Below, one piece after another: positions 285 through 56,503 of a DNA stretch of 56,841 nt (positions are counted from its first letter, which is position 1; each line of letters begins with the position of its first letter). The DNA lies in NCBI GenBank assembly GCA_049315745.1, contig JBMOJO010000001.1, forward strand, positions 1 through 56,841, in the 5' to 3' direction. Origin of the DNA: Saprospiraceae bacterium. GTDB taxonomy: Bacteria > Bacteroidota > Bacteroidia > Chitinophagales > Saprospiraceae. The notes beneath the pieces were generated by a model. The model was given only the letters and a program-made list of their open reading frames with translations, was not told the origin of the DNA and ran no database searches. Both the position numbers and the translations under genes were made by a program.

Positions 285-2420
285 ATGAATTGGCGGGAAT
301 TTCCATTGTTCAAAATTTTTCCGGCTTTTCTTCTAGGGATCCTTTTTACGGCGCGGATAATCCCTGAAGCTTACCCACCGGAATTTTTCCTTGTTTTGCT
401 GGGTGTTGCCCTGTGCAGTGTGCTGACGGGCATGGCAGGAGTGTTTGTACGTCGTAGTACCTGGCCATATTTTTGCTGGTTTCAGGCGGCATTTTTTTTA
501 CTTGGGGCATGGCGGTATTCTGCTGTTGCCGGTGAGCGAGTTTCAGGCAGACTTAGCGGGATCGCCGGAAAGGCGACACAGGTACTTGCCGCTGTGGAGG
601 AAGTTCGACAGGGGGTAAGCGTACACAAAGTTACCGCTAGGGTATATGCCGTAACGGACACGACCGGGGATGCGGTGCCCATGGAAGGGAAGGTGATGTT
701 GCTGTTAGAAAAGCGTACAGGGTCTGTGCCGGTTGCCGGCAATATAGTGAGTGTTCGCGGGCGGTTGGTCGAAATCGGGAACAATCCCAATCCGGGGGTA
801 TTCAATTACGCAGCTTATCTGCGCGGGAAGCGGATATACTGGCAGGTTTATGCAAGGTCGGGCGATTGGGCGGTATATCGTCGGGAATTAGCGGCGGGGC
901 CGGGCCGCTGGCTGCAGCGTTGTCGTCGGTATTGCCTCGACCGTCTTGGCACAGTTCTGCCCGGGGGTACAGAATATGCGATTGGGGCGGCATTGTTGCT
1001 GGGCAACCGGGAAAAGATGGACGCGGAGGTCCGGGATATATTCAGCCATACTGGGGCGATGCACATCCTTGCGGTTTCCGGGTTACATGTTGGGATGATT
1101 GCCTGGTGCCTGGGCAGGCTGCTCCAATGGGTGCCGGTGCGGAGCCGATGGGCAAAAGGCGCCGTTCAGGTGATCGGGATATGGGGATATGCGTTGCTGT
1201 GCGGCCTGGGCGCATCGGTAGTTCGTGCTGCGCTCATGTTTAGCTGGTTTACCCTGGGCAGGGTGCTGGATCGTCCTGTGAATATCTGGAACGCCCTCGG
1301 GGGGGCTGCCTTTTTTCTGCTTTTGATAGAACCCCTTTGGATATTTGATATTGGTTTCCAGTTGTCTTTTATGGCCGTTGCGGGCATCGTGCTTTTTGAG
1401 CCGCCCATATACAGGGCTTTATACGTTCGAAACCGCCTGCTGGATTATCTGTGGAAGTTAACGGCGGTTGGCCTGGCGGCACAGCTTGCGACGGCGCCTT
1501 TAGGAATCTATTATTTCCATCAGTTTCCGCTGCTTTTTTGGCTTTCCGGTTGGGTCGCCGTGCCATTGGGGGCGTTGTGCCAGGCGCTCGGGGCATTGTA
1601 TATCATACTGGCACAGGTGCCGGTTATCGGTCCGGGTGCTGGGTGCCTGCTCAATCTTGCGATAAAGGCGATGTACTGGGGCATCTACTGGATAGATCAA
1701 ATCCCGGGCGCCTGTATAAAAGGGTTGTGGCTGAGCGAATGGGGGGCGTGGTGTGCCTGCTTTTGTCTGGGGATTACAGCCTGGGCATTTTTTTTGTCAG
1801 ATAAGCGTGCCGTATGGGTGGGGGCGATGCTGTTATTTTTTGCCGGTATTCTCGAGTTATGTGCCGGGTTAAGAATATCGCAACGGTCCGAGGTGATTTG
1901 TTTTGGGATCAAAAATGCCTCGGCGCTGGAGTATTTGAATGGTCGGGCGGCCACGGGGTTTTATTTCGGCGATAGTGGGCGTATTGCAGCGCAGACGGAG
2001 GGATTTCACCTCCGTGGCCGGGTGCGGTCGCCGGCGCAGCTTCTGATAACGGATACCCTGATCAATCGTCAGGCGGGGGTATTGCAGCGGGGGCCAATGG
2101 CTGTTTTTGAGGCTACCCGTTTTTTTGTCTGGGATGGCAGGGACAGTTGCCGGCGTACGCCCCCGCCCGGTGCAGATTATTGGTTATTGCGCAATAGCCC
2201 ATTTGTGCCCGCGGGCATGCCGACGGATCGTTTTCCACGGCGTGCGGTCGTAATTGACGGCAGCAATTCGGCACGGAGTGTGCGCTTTTACCGGCGTTAT
2301 TTCGGGTCGAGGGGGGTAAAGGTACATTATACCCAAACGGACGGCGTATGGCATTTAAAACTAAAACCAAGAGAAGATGCAACACAAGTGGACAAGCCTC
2401 GATTATTTTTCTCCGGGTGA
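285..2420 (+). CDS. comEC: ComEC/Rec2 family DNA internalisation channel protein
   Basis: 711-aa polytopic membrane ORF with the competence-domain signature ...HTGAMHILAVSGLHVG.... The C-terminal ~190 aa are soluble and carry no HxHxDH motif. Confidence 0.85.
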   Translation: MNWREFPLFKIFPAFLLGILFTARIIPEAYPPEFFLVLLGVALCSVLTGMAGVFVRRSTWPYFCWFQAAFFLLGAWRYSAVAGERVSGRLSGIAGKATQVLAAVEEVRQGVSVHKVTARVYAVTDTTGDAVPMEGKVMLLLEKRTGSVPVAGNIVSVRGRLVEIGNNPNPGVFNYAAYLRGKRIYWQVYARSGDWAVYRRELAAGPGRWLQRCRRYCLDRLGTVLPGGTEYAIGAALLLGNREKMDAEVRDIFSHTGAMHILAVSGLHVGMIAWCLGRLLQWVPVRSRWAKGAVQVIGIWGYALLCGLGASVVRAALMFSWFTLGRVLDRPVNIWNALGGAAFFLLLIEPLWIFDIGFQLSFMAVAGIVLFEPPIYRALYVRNRLLDYLWKLTAVGLAAQLATAPLGIYYFHQFPLLFWLSGWVAVPLGALCQALGALYIILAQVPVIGPGAGCLLNLAIKAMYWGIYWIDQIPGACIKGLWLSEWGAWCACFCLGITAWAFFLSDKRAVWVGAMLLFFAGILELCAGLRISQRSEVICFGIKNASALEYLNGRAATGFYFGDSGRIAAQTEGFHLRGRVRSPAQLLITDTLINRQAGVLQRGPMAVFEATRFFVWDGRDSCRRTPPPGADYWLLRNSPFVPAGMPTDRFPRRAVVIDGSNSARSVRFYRRYFGSRGVKVHYTQTDGVWHLKLKPREDATQVDKPRLFFSG

Positions 2421-3261
2421 ACGGAGGGCCTTACTGATGATCCTGGGGTTATCGGCAGTTTTTTTTTCCTTTCCGACTGCGAGGCTTCCTTCCTCCGGCG
2501 AGGTAACCTTTACAACAGCGGATAAGGAATGGCTGGAATCCGGGTACCGCAAATGGCAGTCGGAGAATACTGAAAATCAGCAGAAAAAAAAGTCCGGAGG
2601 GGTAAGAATTACGGTTTTGCACACCTTCGATCCCAACCGGACAACCCGGGAAGCGTTGTTGGGGATGGGGATCCCCGGCAGGGTTGCGCAGGGTTGGGCA
2701 AGGTACCTGGAAAAAGGGGGGAGGTTTAAGTCAAAGGAAGCCGTGCGGAAAATCTATGGCATGGAGGAGTCCTGGTTTTTACAGCTTCGCCCCTGGATGC
2801 GTATCGAGCAGGAGCGGGATACTTTTCCCCCGTCAGGGATAAAACCATTTCGACGAAAGCCCCTTTGCGTTGCGATCGAGATCAACCTTGCAGATTCTGC
2901 CGCATGGGAGCAACTGCCGGGCATAGGGCCGGTGCTTGCCGGACGGATTGTCCGTTTTCGGGACCGGCTCGGCGGCTTTTATGGTATTCATCAGGTAGGG
3001 GAGACTTATGGGCTTGCGGACTCGGTTTTCCAGCGTATTTTACCCTGCCTTGAGCTTTCTGGGGGGCATCGGCACCTGGATATTAACCAGGCAGCAGAAA
3101 ACGAACTGCGGTCCCATCCTTATATAGGCTATAAACTGGCCAGGATGATTATGGCCTACCGGCAGCAGCACGGTGCGTTTGCTGCCCCCGAGGAGCTTTT
3201 AAAGCTGCCTTTAATGGATACGCTTACACTGGAACGTCTAAAACCTTATCTTCGCAAATAA
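2377..3261 (+). CDS. ComEA-like tandem helix-hairpin-helix DNA-binding protein
   Basis: N-terminal membrane anchor (FSPGERRALLMILGLSAVFF). Two HhH modules (LPGIGPVLAGRIVRFRDRLGGF and HPYIGYKLARMIMAYRQQHGAF). Overlaps the comEC 3' end by 44 nt. Confidence 0.7.
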   Translation: MQHKWTSLDYFSPGERRALLMILGLSAVFFSFPTARLPSSGEVTFTTADKEWLESGYRKWQSENTENQQKKKSGGVRITVLHTFDPNRTTREALLGMGIPGRVAQGWARYLEKGGRFKSKEAVRKIYGMEESWFLQLRPWMRIEQERDTFPPSGIKPFRRKPLCVAIEINLADSAAWEQLPGIGPVLAGRIVRFRDRLGGFYGIHQVGETYGLADSVFQRILPCLELSGGHRHLDINQAAENELRSHPYIGYKLARMIMAYRQQHGAFAAPEELLKLPLMDTLTLERLKPYLRK

Positions 3262-6148: not shown

Positions 6149-7942
6149 ATGAAGCATATTCGCAATTTTTGTGTGATCGCGCATATTGACCACGGAAAAA
6201 GCACGCTCTCTGACCGACTTCTCGAAATGACGAGTACCCTGGATAGCCGGCAGATGATGGACCAAACCCTGGACAATATGGACCTGGAGCGGGAGCGCGG
6301 TATTACGATCAAAAGCCACGCGGTACAGATGTACTATGCGCACACCGACGGTCAGATGTACACGTTCAATTTAATTGATACCCCCGGCCATGTAGATTTT
6401 TCCTACGAGGTCTCCCGCTCAATCGCAGCTTGCGAAGGCGCTTTACTACTGGTGGATGCTACCCAGGGTATTCAGGCCCAAACGATATCCAACCTCTATC
6501 TCGCGATCGAACATAACCTGGAAATCATCCCCATCCTCAATAAAATTGATATGGAAAGCGCGATGATTGATGAGGTGTCCGAACAAATCATAGACCTGAT
6601 CGGCTGTAAAAAGGAAGATATTATCCTGGCGAGTGGCCGTACGGGGCAGGGCGTTGCAGATATCATGAAAGCTGCAGTAGAACGCATCCCTCCACCAAAA
6701 GGGGATCCTGAAGCACCCCTGGAAGCCCTTATCTTCGATTCCGTCTTCAATTCTTTCCGGGGCGTAGTCGTTTATTTCCGGATCATGAATGGTACCCTGC
6801 GAAAAGGGGACAGGGTGCGTTTCTTCAATACGGAAAAGGAATATTTCGCCGATGAAATCGGGATCCTGCAAATCAATCAGATACCCCGGCCGGAACTGAA
6901 GGCAGGGGATGTCGGCTATATTATTACCGGGATCAAAAACTCTAAGGAAATCAAAGTCGGCGATACCATCACGCTTGCCGAAAACCCCTGCGAAAAAGCA
7001 ATCCAGGGATTCGAAGATGTCAAGCCCATGGTCTTTGCAGGGATTTTTCCGATTGATAACGATGATTTTGAGGATCTCCGGGATAGCCTGGAAAAATTGC
7101 AGCTCAACGATGCTTCTCTGGTTTTTGAACCGGAAACCTCCGTCGCCCTGGGTTTCGGTTTTCGCTGCGGATTCCTCGGGATGCTGCACCTGGAAATTAT
7201 TCAGGAACGCCTGTCCCGGGAATTCAATATGGAGGTCATTACAACGGTGCCCAACGTATCCTACTATGCACATACGACCAAAGGGGAAAAACTCACGATC
7301 CGGACACCTTCCGATCTGCCCGACACTTCCAGCCTCTCTTATGTGGAGGAGCCTTATATCCGTGCCCAAGTCATCACTAAACCTGAATATATCGGCACCA
7401 TCATGACACTGTCTATGGAAAAAAGGGGCTTGCTGGTCCGGCAGCACTATTTGACAACAGACCGGGTAGAGCTGACTTTCGAGATGCCGCTTGCTGAAAT
7501 CGTCTTCGATTTTTACGACCGCCTGAAGTCTATTTCCAGAGGATATGCTTCTTTTGATTATTATCCAATCGAGTACCGGGAATCCGATCTCGTGAAAATG
7601 GATATCAAGCTCAACGGCGACAATGTAGATGCCTTGTCTGCACTTGTGCACCGCGAAAAAGCGGAGTCTTTTGGCCGTAAAATCTGTAAACGTTTGCGGG
7701 ACCTGCTGCCGCGACAGCAGTTCATGATCGCCATACAGGCGGCTGTCGGGGCGAAAATTATCGCTCGGGAAACGATTTCCGCCCTCAGGAAGGATGTCAC
7801 GGCAAAGTGCTATGGGGGGGATATCTCCAGAAAACGCAAATTGCTGGAGAAACAAAAAGAAGGCAAGAAAAAAATGCGCCAAATCGGCAATGTCGAAGTG
7901 CCGCAAAAAGCCTTCCTGGAAGTGTTGAAGCTCAATAATTAA
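6149..7942 (+). CDS. lepA: Translation elongation factor 4 (LepA)
   Basis: N-terminus [33 protein letters not shown]-motifs and the conserved LepA C-terminal domain. 597 aa. Confidence 0.97.
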
Positions 7943-8026
7943 AATAGCTGGAAAAATCGCGTTGCGGTTATTCTGACCGCATCCCCGGCAGCAACGTCGC
8001 AGGATATGTGGTCTCATCAGTCGTTG

Positions 8027-13416: not shown

Positions 13417-13836
13417 ATGAAAGATTTTCTGGACCTTTTCGGACGTTTTTTTTTAGCGGTCTTTTTTTACTTCGAGGCGTTCGACTCGATATTTTGTTTT
13501 CGCGAAACCCGCGATAAAATGACTGCGTATGGGCTTACCTGGAAGCAGGATACCCTTTTGCTCGGTGCGGTTGTATGCCTGATCCTGGGGAGTACCCTGG
13601 TATTGATCGGTTACCGGGCAGCATTCGGCGCCTTCCTGCTTTTTGCCTACTGGCTTCCGGTAACCCTGATCGTCCACGCGTTTTGGAGCGTGCCACCCGG
13701 CCAGCAACGCACAGTATTGGTGGATTTGATGCAGAATATGGCCATTTGCGGCGGTCTGTTCCTGATTATCGCCAACGGTGCCGGCCGCTATTCGATAAAA
13801 AGATTGTTTTCAACGATAAAAGTAGGGGGGACATAA
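13417..13836 (+). CDS. DoxX family membrane protein
   Basis: 139 aa with four hydrophobic helices in a DoxX-like pattern (FLAVFFYFEAFDSI..., MAICGGLFLIIANGAGRYS). Confidence 0.7.
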   Translation: MKDFLDLFGRFFLAVFFYFEAFDSIFCFRETRDKMTAYGLTWKQDTLLLGAVVCLILGSTLVLIGYRAAFGAFLLFAYWLPVTLIVHAFWSVPPGQQRTVLVDLMQNMAICGGLFLIIANGAGRYSIKRLFSTIKVGGT

Positions 13837-14100
13837 AGCCTGGGTTCGTCAGAATGATTGCCATGGAATGCTAATGGAGAAAAAATCCCATATTTCTCCC
13901 GACCCCATCCCCCTGCGCAATGATTCTGCTTTCAAACCACGCGCGATTTCGGTCAAATCGCCTCTGGTATCTCCTTGGTGAGCGGCCTGGGAGAGCTAAA
14001 ATATGTTAAATCAATGTGTTTTTTTCCGCAAAAAAACCGCTTTCAGGTAAATCTTTGTATCTTACACGCAAATTAATTTATCCTAAAACCGTTACAATTT

Positions 14101-14871
14101 GTGATGAGGGCCATCATAGTCGAAGACGAACCACTTGGGCGGACCAACTTAAAGATGATGATCCGTCAGCACTGCCCTGATGTCGAATTAGTTGGTGAGG
14201 CAGGCAGCAACGAAGAGGCGGTCCAAATGCTAAAGGGCTTGAAAGAACGCCCGGACCTGGCATTTCTGGATATCAAGCTACCTGATGGGCTGGTCTTCAA
14301 AATGCTGAACGAGGTCCAGCCGATTGACTTCGAGGTAATTTTTGTTACGGCCTGGCAGGAATATGCAATCAAAGCATGCGAGTACAGCTCCATCGGGTAT
14401 ATTCTGAAACCGATTGACCCCGATGTTCTGAAAGATTCGATCGCAAGGGTACGGTCGCGCGCGGCTGCGCAGATTGATCGTCGCCTGGATATATTCTCCA
14501 ATTTCTACCAGAACCCCAATACGTTCTCAAAGATGAGTATATCCGCCCTTGATGGCATATACTTCGTCAATATCAAGGATATCTACCGCTTCGAGGCCGA
14601 GGATAATTACACCCACATCTATATGAAGGGGGGAGAGCGGATAACGGCTTCCAAAACGATAAAATATTACGAAGAATTACTCGCGCCTTTCAATTTCTTC
14701 CGCGTGCATAAACGACACATGATCAACCTTAATTATATGTCGAAGTATATCCGGGGAGAGGGAGGGTACGTGATCATGGATGAAGGCTTGCAGATCGAGG
14801 TGTCCAGGAGGAGGCGCACTTCCTTTATAGACCTGCTGCGCCGCCTGCAGGGTGGCCGCCAGATGGAATAA
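14101..14871 (+). CDS. LytTR/AlgR family response regulator (REC + LytTR DNA-binding domain)
   Basis: REC motifs (IIVEDEP, LAFLDIKLPDG, ILKP). LytTR domain (IYRFEAEDNYTHIYMKGGERITASKTI...FFRVHKRHMINLNY). GTG at 14101 or ATG at 14104. Confidence 0.9.
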   Translation: MMRAIIVEDEPLGRTNLKMMIRQHCPDVELVGEAGSNEEAVQMLKGLKERPDLAFLDIKLPDGLVFKMLNEVQPIDFEVIFVTAWQEYAIKACEYSSIGYILKPIDPDVLKDSIARVRSRAAAQIDRRLDIFSNFYQNPNTFSKMSISALDGIYFVNIKDIYRFEAEDNYTHIYMKGGERITASKTIKYYEELLAPFNFFRVHKRHMINLNYMSKYIRGEGGYVIMDEGLQIEVSRRRRTSFIDLLRRLQGGRQME

Positions 14872-15049
14872 GTCGCGAAAAGGTGTTCAAAGTTTCTCGG
14901 ATAAAATAAACAGCATAGCTTACGGTGGCTTACAGCGGATTTTCAGCAACAATTGTGTGAGGTCCAACGTTCAACCGTAACTGTCCCAAAAATTTTAAAC
15001 TTTTAATTGGTTTATCCCCCTTAGCTAATTAAATAATTATTACAACACT

Positions 15050-15199
15050 ATGAGGAAGGAAAACAAGGACAAAGAACTTGAGGAAATCAAGAAGAACTTC
15101 AATCTGAAGCCCGTCAAGAAAGAGGATATGAAAAAAATCAAAGGCGGTAAAAGTGGCAGGCCATGGCAAAACGGATGTTCTGATATCATCCCGCAGTAA
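15050..15199 (+). CDS. Unannotated 49-aa peptide precursor with a double-glycine leader: MRKENKDKELEEIKKNFNLKPVKKEDMKKIKGG / KSGRPWQNGCSDIIPQ
   Basis: Translated by hand; it falls below the 60-aa cutoff of the ORF track. The leader ends in the ...EDMKKIKGG motif typical of Bacteroidota GG-type precursors. The pre-ATG context is A/T-rich and an intrinsic terminator follows 25 nt after the stop. Confidence 0.65.
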   Translation: MRKENKDKELEEIKKNFNLKPVKKEDMKKIKGGKSGRPWQNGCSDIIPQ

Positions 15200-15224
15200 A
15201 TTGCAGCCCTTTTTGCCTAACAAA

Positions 15225-15261
15225 AGGCTACTCTTTTTCATGAAAGAGGTGGCCTTTTTTT
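15225..15261 (+). terminator. Intrinsic terminator after the GG-peptide ORF
   Basis: AGGCTACTCTTT-ttcatg-AAAGAGGTGGCCT hairpin (one bulge) followed by seven T. Confidence 0.7.
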
Positions 15262-15275
15262 GTATATACTTTTCC

Positions 15276-15290
15276 GCTTTACTGTAAAGC
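15276..15290. promoter_or_regulatory. 7-1-7 inverted repeat GCTTTAC-T-GTAAAGC upstream of the kinase gene (candidate operator)
   Basis: Perfect palindrome 41 nt upstream of the ATG at 15331. The GCTTAC half-site is related to the direct repeat GCTTACGGTGGCTTACAG at 14918-14935. Confidence 0.3.
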
Positions 15291-15330
15291 AGATGTAATC
15301 CGGTAAAAAACGCATCTAATTAGTTTTTGC

Positions 15331-17256
15331 ATGGTTTTACCCGTACTAAACGGCCCCGATATTCCGTCACTGGAGTACCAGCTCCAGGAACCCATCAGCG
15401 ATCGGTCAACTATAGACATCATAGACCGGCTCCTTTCTTATTATGCGTTTACCAATGTACAGCGCTCCAGGCAGCTGCTTCAACAACAAGAGGTGCTGCT
15501 GGATCAAGCCCCTGCTGTATATTATTTACAGAATTATTATACGTATCGCGGTATTGTCGAGAACCAGGCATACGATTACGCAGCCTCGGCCCGCTATTTT
15601 CTGAGGGCCATCGCGCTTGCCGAAGAAAACAGGGATGCGCGGGCCCAAGTCGAATTGTATATTGATTATGCCGGGACTTGCATCAACAATCGGACGCTTG
15701 AGGAGGCACAGACCTTTTTAGACAAGGCCTTGCGCCTTCTGCGCATCTATCCCGATCCGTGCCTGGAAGCCAGGGTAACCAGCAGGGAAGGCTTCCTGCA
15801 AATCTTCTACTCCAATTATTCCCGGGCAATCGAACTTTTGCTGGAAGCGGATAAGGCAATCGCCGCGTTGGGCCGGGAGCGCCTTACAACAAAAGATTAT
15901 TTTTTCCTCGTACTGATCTATAACGGTTTCGGAATCATTCATGAGCGCAACGATGACCCTGAAAGCAGTGTGCGGGCTTATCAAAAAGCTGCCTCGATAG
16001 CAGAAGAAATCGGAATGCGCACCAGGATGTCCTGGATATATCTGAACATCGGCAACGGCTTTTTGTCGCTGGGCAAACTTGGCAAAGCAGCTATTTTTTT
16101 TTCGAAAGCTGCCAAGGCCGTAGATGATCCCCACCCCGTTTCAAAAGCGAGCGCATTCGCAAACCTGGGGTATTGCAAGCTGCATAAAAAGCGCTACGTA
16201 GAGGCCTTAACACTCCTCGAACGCGCCGAGACCCTTTTTAACCAGGTGGCGGAAACCTCCGCTTCCAAAAACTATGCCTTGATCGAGGCATGGCGGGGCT
16301 CTGTTTTTGCGCGGACCGGGGAACGGGAAAAGGCCATCCTGCATTTCTTCCAGGCGGTCGCCCTGGCTGATAAAGAAGCTGATTACAAACAGTTGTCTGG
16401 TATCTTCCAGGATATGGCAGAGTTCTATGCCGACCAATCAGATTTTCGTACCGCATACGAGTATCAGCTGCAGCATAGCAAATATGCAGAACTCTACCAC
16501 GTCAAGGTAAACCAAAGAAAACGTACCGAGCTGGAGTATAAGTATCAGGCAGAACAAAAACAACAGGAAGCCGAAATGCTCAAACTGCAGGCCACCCGGC
16601 TACAGCTAAAGGCCCTCCGCGCACAAATGAACCCCCATTTTATCTATAATGCACTCAATTCTATACAGCACTTTATCAACTCCTACCAAACCGACTCAGC
16701 CTCAAAGTACCTGGCTATGTTCGCACGCCTTATGCGGCAAAGCCTGGATTACTCGGACCTGGAAATTATTTCCCTGGATAAGGAAATCAGCTTCCTGAGC
16801 GATTACCTCTTTATCAATCAAAAACTCCGCTTCGACAACGGGCTGCGTTATGAAATTAAGGTGGACGACGAGCTGGACGAGGATATGGTCGGGGTGCCTA
16901 CCATGATTGTTCAGCCGTATGTCGAAAATGCAATCGAACATGGCCTGCGAACGAAGAACGCAGGAATGATCAGCATCCATTTTTCATTGCTGGATGAATT
17001 GAGTATCCTCTGTATCATCAAGGATAATGGGGTTGGCAGAAAACAGGCAATCCTGAACCAGCAGTTGGATTCAAAATTCCAAAAACATCGCTCCCGCGGT
17101 ACCAGCATCACAGAACAGCGGCTACAGTTACTGACGAATTCACGCAACGAAGGAGGAGACGTCAAAACGATTGACCTGGAAGATGAACAGGGCAGACCAT
17201 GTGGGACGCGGGTGGAGGTGAAAATCCCGATAATGGAGATCCCTTTCGGCGCCTAA
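15331..17256 (+). CDS. Soluble TPR-repeat sensor histidine kinase, LytS/YehU type (His_kinase + HATPase)
   Basis: 641 aa with no signal peptide and no membrane-length hydrophobic segment. The first ~400 aa are TPR-like repeats. A charged coiled coil (KRTELEYKYQAEQKQQEAEMLKLQATRLQLKALRAQ) follows. Then comes the H-box MNPHFIYNALNSIQHF and an ATPase domain (VENAIEHG, DNGVG, GTSITEQRL). Confidence 0.88.
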   Translation: MVLPVLNGPDIPSLEYQLQEPISDRSTIDIIDRLLSYYAFTNVQRSRQLLQQQEVLLDQAPAVYYLQNYYTYRGIVENQAYDYAASARYFLRAIALAEENRDARAQVELYIDYAGTCINNRTLEEAQTFLDKALRLLRIYPDPCLEARVTSREGFLQIFYSNYSRAIELLLEADKAIAALGRERLTTKDYFFLVLIYNGFGIIHERNDDPESSVRAYQKAASIAEEIGMRTRMSWIYLNIGNGFLSLGKLGKAAIFFSKAAKAVDDPHPVSKASAFANLGYCKLHKKRYVEALTLLERAETLFNQVAETSASKNYALIEAWRGSVFARTGEREKAILHFFQAVALADKEADYKQLSGIFQDMAEFYADQSDFRTAYEYQLQHSKYAELYHVKVNQRKRTELEYKYQAEQKQQEAEMLKLQATRLQLKALRAQMNPHFIYNALNSIQHFINSYQTDSASKYLAMFARLMRQSLDYSDLEIISLDKEISFLSDYLFINQKLRFDNGLRYEIKVDDELDEDMVGVPTMIVQPYVENAIEHGLRTKNAGMISIHFSLLDELSILCIIKDNGVGRKQAILNQQLDSKFQKHRSRGTSITEQRLQLLTNSRNEGGDVKTIDLEDEQGRPCGTRVEVKIPIMEIPFGA

Positions 17257-17624: not shown

Positions 17625-17681
17625 GTTTTCTCATAGTATGTTTATTGGCCTGCGCATGGTTAAAATGCCGCAGGCTTTTTT
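17625..17681 (+). ncRNA. Small terminator-capped unit 2 (candidate sRNA): box GTTTTCTCATAGTATG + hairpin GCCTGCGCAT/ATGCCGCAGGC + T6
   Basis: A -7 box TATCTTTG (17612-17619) lies 5 nt upstream. The box is identical to that of unit 3. The terminator sequence is different. Confidence 0.4.
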
Positions 17682-17788
17682 ATGCGGCAGACCACATCAT
17701 AAGCGGTTTCGACACTTCATTTTGAAAAACTGCCGTATCCTAAAATGGCATTTGAAACCTGAAGAAGGCAAGTTACATTTATGCCGTA

Positions 17789-17851
17789 GTTTTCTCATAG
17801 TATGTTGCTGGCTCCTACGATCAACCTCCCTGATCGTAGGAGCTTTTTTTT
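17789..17851 (+). ncRNA. Small terminator-capped unit 3 (candidate sRNA): box GTTTTCTCATAGTATG + 13-bp hairpin GCTCCTACGATCA/TGATCGTAGGAGC + T8
   Basis: An imperfect -7 box TACATTTA lies at 17774-17781. An upstream box TATCCTAAAATGG (17733-17745) parallels ATACCCTAAATGG (17574-17586) in front of unit 2. Confidence 0.4.
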
Positions 17852-17985
17852 GGGTAGCTACCCCCCCGGTGCCCGTCCGGAAAATCCGGCGGGCAAAATC
17901 CGCACCGGCCACTCGGGTGTGATGTGAAAGTGCCGGCGGCCTGTTTCCGGCCCGCGGCGATCCGAAAGCAGCACATTTATTTTTC

Positions 17986-18127
17986 GTATCTATTTACCAG
18001 GGGTATCCGCGGCTTCGCCGCGAAGGGTTTTATTTGGTGTGCGTGCATTTTTTACGCGCGAACGCGCGTAAAAAATGCACGCACACCAAAGATTATTTCC
18101 CAGGGCAATGACCTGCTAAATAGATAC
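17986..18127. mobile_element. MITE-like element, family A copy 1 (142 bp; TIR GTATCTATTTA / TAAATAGATAC; 8-bp TSD TATTTTTC)
   Basis: The TIRs and the flanking direct repeats (17978-17985 and 18128-18135) are read directly. The internal perfect 28-2-28 palindrome spans 18033-18090. There is no ORF. Confidence 0.8.
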
Positions 18128-20646
18128 TATTTTTCTACGATAAAAAAAGATCGTTCCAGTTGATTGCCGTCGGTGTCAACGAGGGTAAGCACATGGTGGC
18201 CGGCGCTTGGCCTGAGTTCGAAGTGGTGAAAAGTTTGGGTGCTTCCTAAATATATTTTATCCAGATGCCAGAAGACGCGGGTGTCGGGGTTTCGGTGGGC
18301 AAGTTTAAATACCGTTGCGGATAAGTTTCCGTCCAGGTCTTTCGGAATATAAATTCGGGCATTGCGGGATGGATAGATTAGTTGCATAGGGCTATTTGCC
18401 CCGTCATATTGTACGGCGCCTTGTGCACAGTCGGGGCGAAGCGGCGGGAGTGGCTGATACGCTGGATGTTTTTTCCTGTAATAAAATTCCTCGAGGGTAG
18501 GGAGGACGAACCAGCTCTCGTGAAGGATGGTTTCTGCGGGCTGGCAACTTGCGCTGACCTGAAAGTTGCGCCCCGGGTCTAAATGGATCAGGGTATGGAA
18601 GCGGCAGTCGGGGGCAAGGGCACTTTTTGCGGGCAGCAGTACCGTATCTGCGGGGCAAAACCTTCCTGCCGGCCATCCGCTTTCCCGGCATACCGGGCTT
18701 TTCCTTAGCCCATCGTATGGTTTCTGAAACCATCCGGAAGCCGGCAGCAAGCCAAAGAGTTCGAACATAAAGGGCGCGGCCACACGGGTGCCGATGAGAC
18801 CGGGGCGTCCTACGCCATCGGCATTGCCTACCCAGGTGGCGACCAGGTACTCGGGGGTAAGGCCAATTGCCCAGGCATCCCTGAAGCCGAAGCTGGTCCC
18901 CGTTTTCCAGGCAATTCTTCGACTTGAGCTAAAGTATTGCCAGTCGCCTTCGGATTCCGGTCTTCCCAGTTCCTGCATAGCCTCGAAGGTATGCCAGAGC
19001 GTGCCGGCATCGAAGCGGGGCGCTTTTCGCAAAAATGCGTCGGGGCGTTCGGGCACCGGATGGTTTTGCAGAAAATCCAGAGGGCGGAAATCGTTTTTGC
19101 GGTATCTGCTATTGTGGCTGTTAAAGGTGAGGAGGGTTCTGGCCATGGAGGTATAGACTCCGCCGATGTCCCAGAGGGTGGCTTCGGCACCGCCCAGTAT
19201 AAGCGAGAGGCCGTAGTGGTCGGGGCCTTTCGTAACCGTGCTTATGCCGAGTTTGTGAAGCTGATAATGCAGCCGCCCGACACCATATTGCCTCAAGAGA
19301 TGTACAAATGGAACGTTGAGGGAGCGGGACAGGGCTTTATCTGCGGGTGCCATCCCGTCGTAGTCACGTTGAAAATTTTCAGGATGGTAGCCATTGATAT
19401 TCATCGGCACGTCCGGCAGCAGGCTTGAAGGCAGGATACTGCCCTCCTGGACTGCCAGGGCGAAGAGTATGGGTTTGAGGATGCTACCGGTACTGCGCGG
19501 TGCGGTGACGATATCCACTTCCTGTCCGTGTGCTGCACCGGTGTTGGGCGCGTTGCCAATATATGCGAGGACCCTGCCGCTCGGTACATGTACGATCAGG
19601 GCAGCCAGGTTATGGATTTCGTTAAACTTGAGGACGAGATGGTTGCGGGCGCTTACTTCTATGGCTTTTTGCTGCAGGTCGGCGCTGATTGAAGTCTTAA
19701 TCCTTTGGCCGGGCTTTGTTGCCGCTACGCGCTGGAGCAGGTGCGGGGCCAGGGCCGGGAGCGGAAGCGGGGCATCGGGTAGCGGCTCGGAAAGCGCGAG
19801 GTCTAGCGACAAAGCATCAATTTTGCCTCTTTGGTGCAACTTCTTGAGCAACCTGTTCCGCTTCAGGCGCAATGCCTCCCGATTTCGGCCGGGGTGGATA
19901 AGTGCAGGGCTGTTGGGCAGAATGGCCAGCAGGGCCGCTTCGGCCCAGGAAAGGAAGTGGGGCGGTTTTCCGAAATATCTCCACGCTGCGGCTTCGATAC
20001 CTACCACATTGCCGCCAAAAGGCGCCTGTGCGGCATAGAAGTGCAGGATACGTTTTTTCGGATAACGCAATTCGAGACGGGTCGCCAGAATGACCTCGAT
20101 AATTTTTTCAGGGATATTTCTCGATTTCCCCTTCCTCGACAGGCGGACGACCTGCATACTCAGGGTACTGCCCCCGCTGATGACCCTGCGGCCGCGCAGA
20201 TTCTGCAGTACCGCACGGCCAAAAGCGAGCGGGTCAACGCCTGGATGATAAAAGAACCGCTGGTCTTCAAATGCGACCAACGCCCGGACGTATTTTTCCG
20301 GAAGGCTGTCCGGTTCGGGAAAGCGCCATTGACCGTCTCCAGCAATCCTGGCGCCAAGCAGCCGGCCCGATTGATCTTCGATGACCGTACTGAAGGGGGC
20401 ATCGAACAATTTTTTTGGCAAACAAAATACATACCCAAGCAATAACGGCAGGGATACCAGGAAATAAAGCCGTTTGCGGGGATGGTGCCAGATATGCGAC
20501 TTTAACCAGACGAAGAGGCTTCCTGCCGTTGATAGGAAAAGCCTGAGCAGCCAGGAGCTTTTCACGGAAAGGTAGTGTAGCCGCTTGCCGGCAGCAATGC
20601 GGATTATCCGCCCATACCGGAAATCATATCTTCGGGTTTCACCCAT
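18127..20646 (-). CDS. pbpC: Penicillin-binding protein 1C (bifunctional glycosyltransferase/transpeptidase)
   Basis: GT51 motifs ([31 protein letters not shown]-like, [10 protein letters not shown]), a transpeptidase core (STGSILKP) and a PBP1C-type C-terminal domain. The ATG at 20646 overlaps the fumC 3' end by 43 nt. An in-frame GTG at 20565 is an alternative start. Confidence 0.85.
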
Positions 20647-53297: not shown

Positions 53298-54689
53298 ATG
53301 TACGAATTAGACCAGTCATACCTGGACGAGCTCGAGCTGCTCGCAGGGGAGATCCAGGAATCTGAAGATCTGGAAAAATACCTGGATTCAGAAGAAGAAG
53401 CAGATTATACCAGGGTCAAGGAAATTTTCGAGCCAAGGATCGCCATGGTATATAACCGTGTTGCGAATGAAGACCCGCTGCAGTTGGTCCCGCTCGAATT
53501 GATCCTTCTGGATCCCGCGTTCGAGGGACTTTTCCTTCCTAAGATCCTGGGGTATTCGATTTTGCGGGGCGAGGTCAACGAAACGTACCGTTACATCCGG
53601 CCACAGGAACACTTCCAGGAAATCCTGCTGGCCATCTGCAATTCTGCTAATTTTGAAATACTCAAGCAACGGATCGGTCAATCCATTCAGGTAGGGTTTG
53701 CGCTAAGCAGTGATATCTGGGTGACGCACCTGATCAACAATATTCAGAATAAACGCATACGGTATTACCTCCAGGGGCAGAAAGTGGACAAGTTCCATTC
53801 GCTCGAAGAGCGTAAAAATGCGTATCTGCGGTATAAGCGGCAGTTTCGCAACGAAAATTTTGAAACGGCACGTTTCCCCGAGACTGCGCCGGAATTACCG
53901 GTGCTTTTCAACGGACTGAAGCGCTTCCTGATTTATCGTGCCGGCCTGCGTTTGTCCAATGCCAGTCTTACCGGCCCAATTATGGACTTTTTGCGCAATA
54001 AGGCTTTCGAAGGTACCCGGGAGCACCTCCAAGTCATGATGTTGTTTGTAATGTGGTATTCCGGCAGCCGGGACGTACAATCGGAGATCGCGGATATTTT
54101 CAGCCGCGTCCGTCGGTCGGTGCCTGATTTCAAGGAATCGTTCCTGCAATTCCTGCTCGAGCTGCACAACCACCCCGACCTCGTCCTTGGTCCTGAACAA
54201 GACCTCAACATGTCCCAGTTGGTGGACCAATCGGTGGGCGATGAACTCAGTGCGTTTTATGCCGTCATAGACGAGATCCACGGCACAGGTTATAACCAGC
54301 CCGAGACGCTTGAAGCGATAAAAGTATTCTATAACCAGCACGAGGGGCTCTCGGTGATCAACGAGTGCGTACGGATTACCGTGCGGCACTATTTTGACCA
54401 GTTTATCCAGAACCTGGAAACGACGGCCTATGTGGATTTTTTTGAAATCTGCAAGCTGATGCCGGCCTATATGGGTGTTTTTGCCAATCAGCACTTCAAC
54501 CAGAGCCTGAAGGAAAATTCGCTGGCCTACGTCCAGCGTTTGTTAGCTGCTTACACAGATAAACGCGGGAAGGATTACCAGGATATCAAGCGTTTTGTTT
54601 CGACGGTTTTTGTTGATCTCGATTTCATCAAAGAAAAAGAGGTCGTGGAAATGTTCAAAACCCGGCGCAAGAAAAAAGACGCGGCCTAA
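53298..54689 (+). CDS. Hypothetical protein, ~463 aa
   Basis: Long clean ORF with an acidic N-terminus and helical composition. No motif recognised. Its stop overlaps the convergent regulator gene by 4 nt. Confidence 0.6.
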   Translation: MYELDQSYLDELELLAGEIQESEDLEKYLDSEEEADYTRVKEIFEPRIAMVYNRVANEDPLQLVPLELILLDPAFEGLFLPKILGYSILRGEVNETYRYIRPQEHFQEILLAICNSANFEILKQRIGQSIQVGFALSSDIWVTHLINNIQNKRIRYYLQGQKVDKFHSLEERKNAYLRYKRQFRNENFETARFPETAPELPVLFNGLKRFLIYRAGLRLSNASLTGPIMDFLRNKAFEGTREHLQVMMLFVMWYSGSRDVQSEIADIFSRVRRSVPDFKESFLQFLLELHNHPDLVLGPEQDLNMSQLVDQSVGDELSAFYAVIDEIHGTGYNQPETLEAIKVFYNQHEGLSVINECVRITVRHYFDQFIQNLETTAYVDFFEICKLMPAYMGVFANQHFNQSLKENSLAYVQRLLAAYTDKRGKDYQDIKRFVSTVFVDLDFIKEKEVVEMFKTRRKKKDAA

Positions 54690-55381
54690 ACGGGCGCCTC
54701 TTTGCCGACGAATTTATACCCGACCCCGCGGATGGCATGGAAATGGACGGGGTTGCGGGAATCTTCTTCAAAATTCCGACGGAATTTCAGGATAAAGTTG
54801 TCAATTGTCCGGGTGCTCGGGAATACATCATATCCCCAGACCGACTGCAGGATTTGCTGTCTGGAGACTACCTCCCCTTCCCGGTCAATCAGTAGTTTGA
54901 GCAGCATGGCCTCTTTCTTGGTGAGGATAAATTTCCCCAGGGTCCCTTCTGCTTCGAAGGTGACGAAATTGATCCGGTTATTGCCAAAAACATATAATTC
55001 AGGGGTGTTTTCGAGGGTCCTTCCGCTGCGTCGCAGGAGTTTCTGCACCCGCAGGAGGAGTTCTTCGAGCACAAAAGGTTTGGTGAGGTAATCATCGGCG
55101 CCGCGTTTCAGGCCGGCGATGCGATCTGCGGCGGTGTCTTTGGCTGTGAGGAAAATAATCGGCGTCTCCAGGTCGCTGAGCCGTATTTGCGCACAGACCT
55201 GAAACCCGTCAATTTCCGGGAGCATTACATCCAATATGACCAGGTCAAAGTGTTGTTCCTGGAACAAGCGGAGGGCCTCTTTTCCGTTTTTCGCGCTTAC
55301 AGCTTCATAGCCTTCGAGTTCTAGGTTGAGGCTTACCGCTTCGCGGATATTTTCCTCATCTTCGGCGAGCAGGATACGCAT
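54686..55381 (-). CDS. OmpR/PhoB-family response regulator
   Basis: REC (MRILLAEDEE, LVILDVMLPEIDG, YLTKPF) plus a winged-helix output domain (LTKKEAMLLKLL..., IRGVGYKF). Confidence 0.9.
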   Translation of the reverse strand: MRILLAEDEENIREAVSLNLELEGYEAVSAKNGKEALRLFQEQHFDLVILDVMLPEIDGFQVCAQIRLSDLETPIIFLTAKDTAADRIAGLKRGADDYLTKPFVLEELLLRVQKLLRRSGRTLENTPELYVFGNNRINFVTFEAEGTLGKFILTKKEAMLLKLLIDREGEVVSRQQILQSVWGYDVFPSTRTIDNFILKFRRNFEEDSRNPVHFHAIRGVGYKFVGKEAPV

Positions 55382-55462
55382 ATATAATTGTATTTTAGGC
55401 TTATGCCTGGTTCAGGGCGAAAGGGCATATTTTCACAGCGTCTTTTGTATATCCGGATGCGT

Positions 55463-56503
55463 TCAGGCAGGCCCCCGGGCGGTTTCCCTTCGCGGCAGCT
55501 CTGGCAAAAACACTTCAAAAATACTGCCCTTGGGAAAATTATCAGATACCCGGATTTTGCCCTGGTGTGCTTTTACGAGTTGTTCTACGATGTACAGCCC
55601 CAGCCCTGTACCTTTCGAATTGCGGGTATCTTCATTGCCCAGGCGGTAAAATTTCTTAAATATACGGCGTTTTTCCAAATCGGGTATGCCCGGGCCCTGG
55701 TCGGCGACCAGGAGGACGAACCCTGCCGGCTTTTCAAGATAGGCAAGCCTTGTTGTAATCATAGGGGCCGGCTCATTGGAGTATTTTATGGCATTTTCCA
55801 GCAAATTCAGCACGATTGAGGTGAAGCCCAGCTTATCGCCATACCAGTGCGGAAGATTCATTTGATAGGACGTCGGGAAGCGCGTCCCGGGATATTTATC
55901 GTGGAGTTTGGCGATGATTTCGTCGAGAAGCCCCGGCAGGTAAATAGTTGAGTAGTCGGGTTGGTAGGCTGTTTCGAGTTTGGCGGAGAGGAGGAGGTTC
56001 TCGACCAGGAGATGGAGCCGCTCGGTGTCTTTGAGTGCGTTGGTGGATAATTTTTCGGTCTGTGTGCGGCCGAGCTCGCGTTTGAGCAGGGTTTCCAGGA
56101 CGAGGCGTATAGAAGCAATAGGCGATTTCAGCTCATGGGTAATGGCGAGCAGGAAGTTTCGCCGTTGGGTCGCAGCGACCATTTCTTTCTGATACCCCCT
56201 GTTGATAAACCAAATTCCTGCGACGAGACTAAGGACGAATACCGCAGCCTCGCCGATAATCATGAGCTCCTGACGCCGGTAATGCTGCTCAAGGGCGCGG
56301 AATGCCTCCGTATCCTGAAAAGGGCGGAGGTTGTCCAGGAGCTTACGACCGTCCATTTCCCGGCGCAGCAACTCCTGTCGGGATTCAAACGCGTCGCGGT
56401 TTTTGGAAAAAAGCAGGATGGTCCACCAGGTAAAAGCCATCAGCATATAGGCGATCACAGCAAATGAAAGCAGGCGCAGCTGAATATTCCGTAGGTCTTC
56501 CAT
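55463..56503 (-). CDS. Sensor histidine kinase (HisKA + HATPase), cognate to the OmpR-type regulator
   Basis: Two N-terminal TM helices, H-box FLLAITHELKSPIASI, N-box LLENAIKYS and G-boxes DQGPGIP and GTGLGLYIV. Confidence 0.9.
   Translation of the reverse strand: MEDLRNIQLRLLSFAVIAYMLMAFTWWTILLFSKNRDAFESRQELLRREMDGRKLLDNLRPFQDTEAFRALEQHYRRQELMIIGEAAVFVLSLVAGIWFINRGYQKEMVAATQRRNFLLAITHELKSPIASIRLVLETLLKRELGRTQTEKLSTNALKDTERLHLLVENLLLSAKLETAYQPDYSTIYLPGLLDEIIAKLHDKYPGTRFPTSYQMNLPHWYGDKLGFTSIVLNLLENAIKYSNEPAPMITTRLAYLEKPAGFVLLVADQGPGIPDLEKRRIFKKFYRLGNEDTRNSKGTGLGLYIVEQLVKAHQGKIRVSDNFPKGSIFEVFLPELPRRETARGPA

Follow-up and report, generated by a model that had tools for sequence, protein, structure and literature searches.

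A family of double-glycine leader peptides from Saprospiraceae and related Bacteroidota, encoded beside a LytTR response regulator and a TPR histidine kinase that lacks a membrane segment

Introduction

Peptide pheromone signalling is textbook material for the Firmicutes. Our literature search returned no relevant description of such peptide signalling in Bacteroidota, nor of a system like the one reported here, and by that search signalling of this kind is essentially undescribed for the phylum. In a 56,841-nt stretch of a Saprospiraceae genome (contig JBMOJO010000001.1 of assembly GCA_049315745.1; the whole stretch is called the window below) a small open reading frame (ORF) of 49 amino acids (aa) lies between the genes for a LytTR-type response regulator (RR) and a soluble TPR histidine kinase. 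Does this ORF encode a peptide, and is that peptide the signal that its neighbours read? Judging from its conservation, the ORF is almost certainly a real, translated gene. We consider it likely, with good confidence, that the peptide is functionally tied to the regulator/kinase pair, and we give about an even chance to the proposal that the two-component system reads it in the cytoplasm as its own signal. The features on which the argument turns are as follows.

14101..14871, plus strand: LytTR-type response regulator, 256 aa (Pfam Response_reg 6.3e-14, LytTR 2.4e-19)
14872..15049, plus strand: RR-peptide spacer, presumed site of the peptide gene promoter (composition, alignment)
15050-15199, plus strand: peptide ORF, ATG at 15050 and TAA at 15197-15199, 49-aa translation MRKENKDKELEEIKKNFNLKPVKKEDMKKIKGGKSGRPWQNGCSDIIPQ
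15050..15148, plus strand: leader of double-glycine type, 33 aa, MRKENKDKELEEIKKNFNLKPVKKEDMKKIKGG (translation, family position statistics)
15149..15196, plus strand: predicted core, 16 aa, KSGRPWQNGCSDIIPQ, with the C-terminal octapeptide GCSDIIPQ
15197..15199, plus strand: TAA stop codon, read directly from the sequence
15222..15261, plus strand: intrinsic terminator, stem 15222-15258 with a G+C core at 15226-15254 and a run of seven T at 15255-15261
15331..17256, plus strand: soluble TPR histidine kinase, 641 aa (Pfam His_kinase PF06580 1.6e-21, TPR_12, HATPase_c)

Conservation of the peptide ORF

ORFs of at least 40 aa number 126 in 15 kb, so the length of the 49-aa ORF is by itself within chance, and we took the ORF as real because of its conservation and not its length. 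Relatives were gathered by scanning one genome per species with the downstream kinase, which returned 80 loci (given L numbers below), the closest kinase matches being 88% and 81% identical. At 20 of the 22 loci with an orthologous kinase (36-88% identity) a small plus-strand ORF stands just upstream of the kinase gene, and all 20 share the layout seen in the window, namely a basic/acidic leader that ends in GG and a short core that ends ...G-C-G/S-G/D-I-[ILV]-P-Q. The reading frame, the GG and the C-terminus are retained down to kinase identities of 36-45%. When the spacer DNA is aligned, the ORF is far better conserved than its flanks. Differences between the window and L002 number 1, 1 and 15 at codon positions 1, 2 and 3 and amount to 14 synonymous and 2 non-synonymous codon changes; the corresponding differences from L001 are 2, 0 and 6. 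A strict GG-leader pattern, applied to the six-frame translation of the whole window, matched this ORF and nothing else.

A first-pass annotation of the window had proposed the ORF with the ATG, TAA and translation given above, all of which we confirm. It had also called the ORF unannotated, which holds in part: gene callers do predict family ORFs in several public assemblies, always as unnamed or 'hypothetical' products. Its proposed check, conservation in the orthologous spacers, came out in favour of the peptide frame, since frame and GG are kept there and an antisense ORF at 15029-15241 is not. That antisense ORF was considered as a candidate and rejected; both L002 and L004 carry stops in it, and the sites at its first codon position are those of the variable third position in the sense frame. 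The antisense frame is open across the body of the peptide ORF in close relatives. When 14500-15700 was compared with Rfam, nothing matched apart from the terminator hairpin, and that weakly.

Leader, core and peptide family

As a criterion for a double-glycine leader we used a length of 15-35 aa, a terminal GG, and, counted from the cleavage site, hydrophobic residues at -4, -7, -12 and -15 and acidic residues at -8 and -9. The window leader has I, M, D, E, V and L at -4, -7, -8, -9, -12 and -15, and the same pattern is found family-wide. A profile of 14 peptides, run as a word-indexed search against a collection of 5.8 billion proteins, yielded 93 clusters, all unnamed or 'hypothetical' save one labelled 'bacteriocin-like protein', and an exhaustive hidden Markov model (HMM) search over 1.84 billion representatives yielded 146 representatives at 50% clustering, none of them named and none in Pfam or NCBIfam. 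Among 221 distinct family sequences GG is kept in 217; position -4 is I, V, L or F in 204, -7 is M or L in 183, -8 is D or E in 184 and -12 is L, I, V or M in 213, and -15 is mostly L, I or V. The first-pass assignment to the double-glycine type is thus borne out by the GG, by the residues at the canonical positions and by sub-threshold matches to TIGR04149, a model of Bacteroidota GG leaders that 26 of 74 members match at E<=0.01, all below its cut-off. The window peptide likewise matches leader_Chryseo, TIGR04149 and bactofencin_A below threshold; its three best GG-leader HMM scores are 15.7 bits where the cut-off is 35, 15.1 where it is 23.5 and 14.0 where it is 25. A weak match to the lactococcin G-beta model was seen as well, and no Pfam or NCBIfam model reached its cut-off on the family peptides.

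The C-terminus is strongly conserved as well (221 sequences): P stands at -2 from the end in 213, the end is PQ in 195, 166 have I at -4, and G prevails at -5, -6 and -8. At -7 Cys is found in 181 of 213 (85%), the others having L, F or I. These counts give the near-invariant consensus G-[C/L/F]-G-G-I-[VLI]-P-Q, and the window octapeptide GCSDIIPQ fits the usual form of this end, G-C-G-G-I-[VLI]-P-Q. By these tallies the most conserved element of the family is the C-terminal I-x-P-Q end. The earlier emphasis on the single Cys and the single Trp of the predicted product does not survive the comparison: Cys is replaced in about 15% of members, and Trp, which 148 of 217 have, is missing in about a third, so that neither is an essential feature. 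The median family core is 18 aa long, and the median net charge is +3. In the window the core carries +1 and has little hydrophobicity; the monoisotopic mass of the predicted 16-mer is 1784.863 Da, and the predicted mass of the precursor is 5739.05 Da.

At the level of primary structure, then, a leader that fits the established double-glycine consensus is joined to a core with a new motif. By the same comparisons the peptides, about 45-55 aa long, make up a family that had no name before and is found in Saprospiraceae, Lewinellaceae and Bacteroidota of the Haliscomenobacter type. Cleavage of the leader at the GG appears probable to us from the residues that precede it.

The regulator-peptide-kinase cassette

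Gene context was assessed in a set made up of the genome loci, look-ups of distant members and a scan of metagenome contigs with a degenerate DNA pattern, 13 of whose 47 matches were due to chance. Forty distinct peptides had usable flanks, the context of 4 staying undetermined. The order RR-peptide-kinase was found for 30 of the 40, and a regulator ortholog lies upstream of the peptide gene in 37 of the 39 cases in which the upstream flank could be assessed. Peptide and kinase occur without an upstream regulator in 2 of the 40 (L113 and L116), or in three lineages if L011/L012 are counted. The link to a LytTR/TPR-kinase pair, which the first-pass annotation had suggested as something to look for in relatives, is therefore recovered, a small GG ORF standing beside both partners in these 30 of 40 loci.

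The flanking genes differ among lineages while the cassette persists. In many lineages the upstream flank holds DAHP synthase, an FAD protein and DoxX and the downstream flank PBP1C; the Lewinella group has other flanking genes. Because the flanks change and the cassette stays, the conserved unit is the cassette itself. The peptide locus is single-copy and syntenic and sits between housekeeping genes, and the cassette behaves as a vertically inherited chromosomal module and not as a mobile island. The clade that carries it is abundant in activated sludge, marine and mat metagenomes.

A histidine kinase with a soluble TPR sensor

A Kyte-Doolittle scan found no transmembrane (TM)-like segment in the window kinase or in any of its 22 orthologs. 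In 55 of 57 more distant relatives the same scan placed a TM helix N-terminal to the kinase core, at a distance of about 45 aa; these relatives often carry an N-terminal signal or TM segment too. Since the window kinase has no membrane segment, ComD-like extracellular sensing cannot apply and sensing must be cytoplasmic. Next to the TM-containing relatives L020-L080 a generic GG-leader regular expression found no peptide; among the relatives examined, the GG peptide occurs only with the TM-less kinase clade.

An AlphaFold2 model built with 99 orthologs (predicted local distance difference test score, pLDDT, 86.9) has 18 helices arranged as nine TPR-like hairpins (aa 11-368), then a continuous charged 80-aa helix (372-451) that forms the stalk and the dimerization and histidine phosphotransfer region, with His436 in an NPHF motif, and then the HATPase domain; it contains no TM segment. 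A Foldseek comparison with the PDB put TPR superhelices that bind peptides at the top, among them LGN/Pins (with Inscuteable, NuMA or Frmpd), consensus TPRs and OGT. The Rap receptors for pheromones came at ranks 35-48, behind generic TPR proteins, and the GanS kinase matched the C-terminal half of the window kinase. Compared at the level of sequence, the kinase gave no match to RRNPP structures. In TPR folds the A helices line the concave ligand groove. On the A helices 19 of 158 positions are polar and at least 90% conserved; on the B helices this is true of 3 of 134 (p=0.0015). Among the positions so conserved are Asn78, Asn119, Asn198, Asn239, Asn278, Asn314, Arg152 and Trp235. As the A helices line the groove, this conservation, read on the model, suggests that the TPR domain has a conserved groove for an extended peptide.

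The peptide gene as a transcription unit

The RR-peptide spacer is 63% A+T overall and 74% A+T in the last 50 nt before the ATG, in agreement with the A/T-rich upstream context described earlier, and close relatives share a conserved ATTAAAT block about 20 nt 5' of the ATG. A scan with the sigma-70-type promoter consensus found none at the ORF. The only direct repeat in the spacer is a tandem 10-nt repeat, GCTTACGGTG/GCTTACAGCG, at 14918-14937. Downstream, the terminator that had been noted at 15225-15261 was recovered by RNA folding as the stem and T-run listed above (-20 kcal/mol, z = -2.2), after a simple terminator consensus scan had missed the bulged hairpin. In the spacer alignment the stem shows compensatory changes among close relatives, and most relatives have a hairpin and U-run, of differing sequence, after the stop codon. 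This recurrence makes the peptide gene look like its own short transcription unit.

Proposed mechanism and the evidence weighed

We propose a three-gene signalling cassette composed of the peptide, the LytTR regulator and the membrane-less TPR histidine kinase. From the anatomy of the gene, the peptide would be made from a discrete, terminator-bounded transcript. The motif indicates that a C39-type peptidase/exporter, its gene lying elsewhere, may cut off the 33-aa leader after G33. The C-terminal G-C-x-x-I-x-P-Q-COOH would serve as the recognition epitope, bound in the concave groove of the cytoplasmic TPR superhelix, which the peptide might reach by re-import, as in RRNPP systems, or from a cytoplasmic pool for which export is a sink. 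Binding would alter autophosphorylation of His436 and phosphotransfer to the LytTR regulator, and hence transcription of target genes, as family knowledge leads one to expect. We are evenly divided on whether the peptide is a direct ligand of the TPR domain, and we doubt that it is a true extracellular quorum signal that is re-imported. The most far-reaching version, in which a GG-leader pheromone leaves the cell, comes back in and is sensed by a soluble kinase through its TPR groove, would be the first ribosomal-peptide cell-cell signalling in Bacteroidota and a new receptor class, and we think it rather unlikely. On that version TPR kinases that faced the periplasm would have given rise to the kinase clade, the anchor being lost when the peptide partner was acquired.

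Several results weigh against a cognate signal sensed in the cytoplasm. Among the GG-leader HMMs (TIGR04149, NF047798, NF038163, ComC) no match reaches a curated cut-off. A search for a LytTR box found no conserved direct repeat, the repeat at 14918-14937 being absent from L001 and L002, and k-mer enrichment in 24 diverse upstream spacers found no shared motif above shuffled controls; as neither a LytTR-box-like repeat nor a shared motif was found upstream of the peptide gene, autoinduction is so far unsupported. The link between kinase and peptide is not obligatory either, as four of the 40 distinct peptides have the regulator and no adjacent kinase (L088, L098, L099/L134 and L107/L123, where unrelated genes occupy the kinase's usual place) and in one ortholog pair (L020) regulator and kinase adjoin directly, the peptide being absent. 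The TM-less clade is monophyletic, so that the association of peptide and TM-less kinase counts as one phylogenetic event and not as independent statistics. Co-variation of peptide position -5 (D versus G, three lineages) with kinase columns was not above controls: seven columns discriminated (4 in the sensor, 3 in the kinase), no more than in control partitions. Processing and export genes were likewise missing from the places searched. Pfam searches of nearly all large ORFs found no C39 peptidase/ABC exporter in the 56.8-kb window, and a scan for Walker-A plus LSGGQ over 603 kb around 60 family loci found only an SbcC. With a cytoplasmic receptor, moreover, an exported peptide must cross two membranes to return, and the cassette has no linked importer. 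The flanks of L012 hold no exporter by Pfam, and no immunity, modification or export genes lie near any family locus examined. An unlinked exporter has a precedent in comAB, which lies apart from comCDE.

The alternative that survives best is an intracellular small-protein modulator: the 49-aa product, never exported, would act within its own cell in a feedback loop, inhibiting the kinase or serving as co-activator through binding to the cytoplasmic TPR domain or to the RR, with a logic comparable to that of Sda/KipI or MgrB on their kinases, the GG leader being an inherited relic or a helix-hinge element. The cytoplasm is the simplest meeting place for a soluble kinase, no exporter or importer is linked to the peptide in any of the 60 loci, the C-terminal epitope is available in the unprocessed form, and the C-terminus is conserved across a family-level clade instead of being diversified into pherotypes. 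The leader speaks against it. Every position that C39 peptidases read is retained, with GG in 217 of 221 sequences, which is hard to explain without processing, and exported peptides of Bacteroidota have related leaders; on balance we regard such a modulator as unlikely.

A secreted bacteriocin or ribosomally synthesized and post-translationally modified peptide (RiPP) precursor that is merely under LytTR control is, in our estimate, also improbable, and slightly the more so. Here the kinase would sense something else, the peptide would be an output, and G-C-G-G would be a site for a modifying enzyme encoded elsewhere. This would account for the pairing of RR and peptide as the most constant one (37 of 39 assessable) and for the four lineages without an adjacent kinase, and it fits the weak matches to the bactofencin A, lactococcin G-beta and TIGR04149 models, the strongly cationic nature of many cores (median +3) and the label 'bacteriocin-like protein' on one member. 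Against these stand the lack of immunity, modification or export genes near any locus; a single-copy, syntenic, vertically inherited locus between housekeeping genes, unlike bacteriocin islands; the low charge (+1) and hydrophobicity of the window core, together with the replacement of Cys in 15% of members; and the restriction of the peptide to the TM-less kinase clade. The first-pass preference for a pheromone-like product over a bacteriocin is upheld by the same core charge, gene content and single inherited locus. That there is no gene here at all, the ORF being a chance frame in a spacer, or the real element being the antisense ORF or a non-coding RNA, has a negligible probability in our view: short ORFs are indeed abundant and the antisense frame is open in close relatives, but the 14 synonymous against 2 non-synonymous changes, the conserved frame, GG and C-terminus, the 146 family representatives, the antisense stops in L002 and L004 and the weak Rfam match confined to the terminator hairpin all speak for the peptide gene.

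Neighbouring genes

Several other features of the window and of related loci were recorded. DoxX (13417-13836) abuts the regulator in the window lineage. In many relatives an Ion_trans/Ion_trans_2 channel gene is divergent from the LytTR regulator; it is absent from the window lineage. The channel genes located are the following.

L081, 5906-6739, minus strand: Ion_trans/Ion_trans_2 channel gene
L083, 5849-6679, minus strand: Ion_trans/Ion_trans_2 channel gene
L085, 5905-6720, minus strand: Ion_trans/Ion_trans_2 channel gene
L087, 8154-8990, minus strand: Ion_trans/Ion_trans_2 channel gene
L089, 1947-2837, minus strand: Ion_trans/Ion_trans_2 channel gene

Downstream of the kinase a 94-aa ORF (17638-17922, plus strand) has no family match and only a partial counterpart at L001 (54% over 61 aa). 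Convergent with the kinase is a PBP1C-type protein (18127-20646, minus strand; Transgly, Transpeptidase and BiPBP_C), an arrangement also seen in many, not all, relatives and probably plain synteny. The G+C content at 14001-16000 is about 0.46, against 0.54-0.58 in the housekeeping neighbours (11-14 kb and 18-20 kb), despite the vertical conservation of the region. A ComEC homolog (Competence plus DUF4131, 711 aa) followed by a ComEA-like HHH_3 protein occupies 285-3261 on the plus strand, which puts ComEC/ComEA-like DNA-uptake genes about 12 kb from the ComC-like peptide cassette. A second, ordinary pair, an OmpR-type regulator (Response_reg plus Trans_reg_C) with a HisKA/HATPase kinase, lies at 54686-56503 on the minus strand. 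Finally, a 523-aa ORF (6446-8017, minus strand) antisense to lepA (6149-7942, plus strand) has no Pfam match and is almost certainly spurious.

Significance

The peptide family is new, and two-component signalling linked to a peptide is met here in a form that varies on the known ones. Should the peptide prove to be the ligand, the soluble TPR-histidine kinase would be a new sensor architecture, and GG-leader peptides in Gram-negative bacteria could be signals rather than toxins. Even if the peptide is only an output, its family is a widespread one of small proteins that has no name and escapes the current models of Pfam and NCBIfam. The compact cassette is directly testable, as it comes down to one 16-mer, one soluble TPR domain and a cultured carrier, Lewinella cohaerens DSM 23179 (L009).

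Comparison with known systems

A close arrangement is that of the Firmicutes systems ComC/ComD/ComE, BlpC/H/R and PlnA/B/C/D, in which, as here, a GG-leader precursor is encoded beside a histidine kinase and a LytTR-family regulator; the adjacency that defines these systems is found in 30 of the 40 distinct loci, where both partners flank the peptide gene. Their kinases, however, are of the HPK10 type, polytopic in the membrane, and detect the peptide extracellularly, whereas the kinase described here belongs to PF06580 (LytS/YesM-like), has a TPR sensor and lacks TM segments. The gene order (RR-peptide-kinase), the phylum (Bacteroidota) and the absence of a detectable autoinduction box are further differences.

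RRNPP systems (Rap-Phr, NprR-NprX, PlcR-PapR, Rgg-SHP and AimR-AimP) likewise pair a cytoplasmic TPR receptor with an adjacent small ORF. The likeness extends to conserved C-terminal residues that would be the signal, to the presence of Rap among the Foldseek matches and to conserved Asn residues on the groove-lining helices. It is a generic TPR likeness, as LGN and consensus TPR proteins score better and no homology is seen beyond the TPR fold. RRNPP receptors are transcription factors or phosphatases, whereas here the effector is a histidine kinase with neither a helix-turn-helix nor a phosphatase domain; RRNPP pro-peptides, which leave by Sec or PptAB and return by Opp, are known from Firmicutes and their phages.

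Within Bacteroidota, the GG-leader precursors covered by TIGR04149 (GG_sam_targ_CFB), NF047798 (leader_Chryseo) and Pfam Bacteroid_pep have the same leader shape, ...L.K.[DE]M..I.GG. The window peptide differs from them in scoring 14-15 bits, below the model cut-offs (25 and 23.5 bits), and in having no adjacent radical-SAM enzyme or C39 transporter, and its core motif G-C-G-G-I-V-P-Q is unrelated to theirs. The kinase has its nearest architectural parallels in membrane-anchored TPR/His_kinase sensors such as Porphyromonas FimS (NF053520), which combine TPRs with PF06580 in the same way, although the window kinase scores only 53.8 bits against the FimS model, whose cut-off is 600 bits. The distant membrane-anchored relatives L024-L080 share the kinase core and carry a signal or TM segment plus a TM helix, so that their TPRs face the periplasm, and no GG peptide lies beside these membrane-anchored kinases. 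On sequence relationships the window kinase seems to derive from such membrane-anchored TPR/PF06580 sensors, common in Bacteroidota, by loss of the anchor. The system is a member of neither the ComCDE type nor the RRNPP group; by analogy it may be described as a hybrid that joins a ComC-like leader and a LytTR output to TPR sensing inside the cell, much as in RRNPP systems, by a receptor that is one protein with the histidine kinase.

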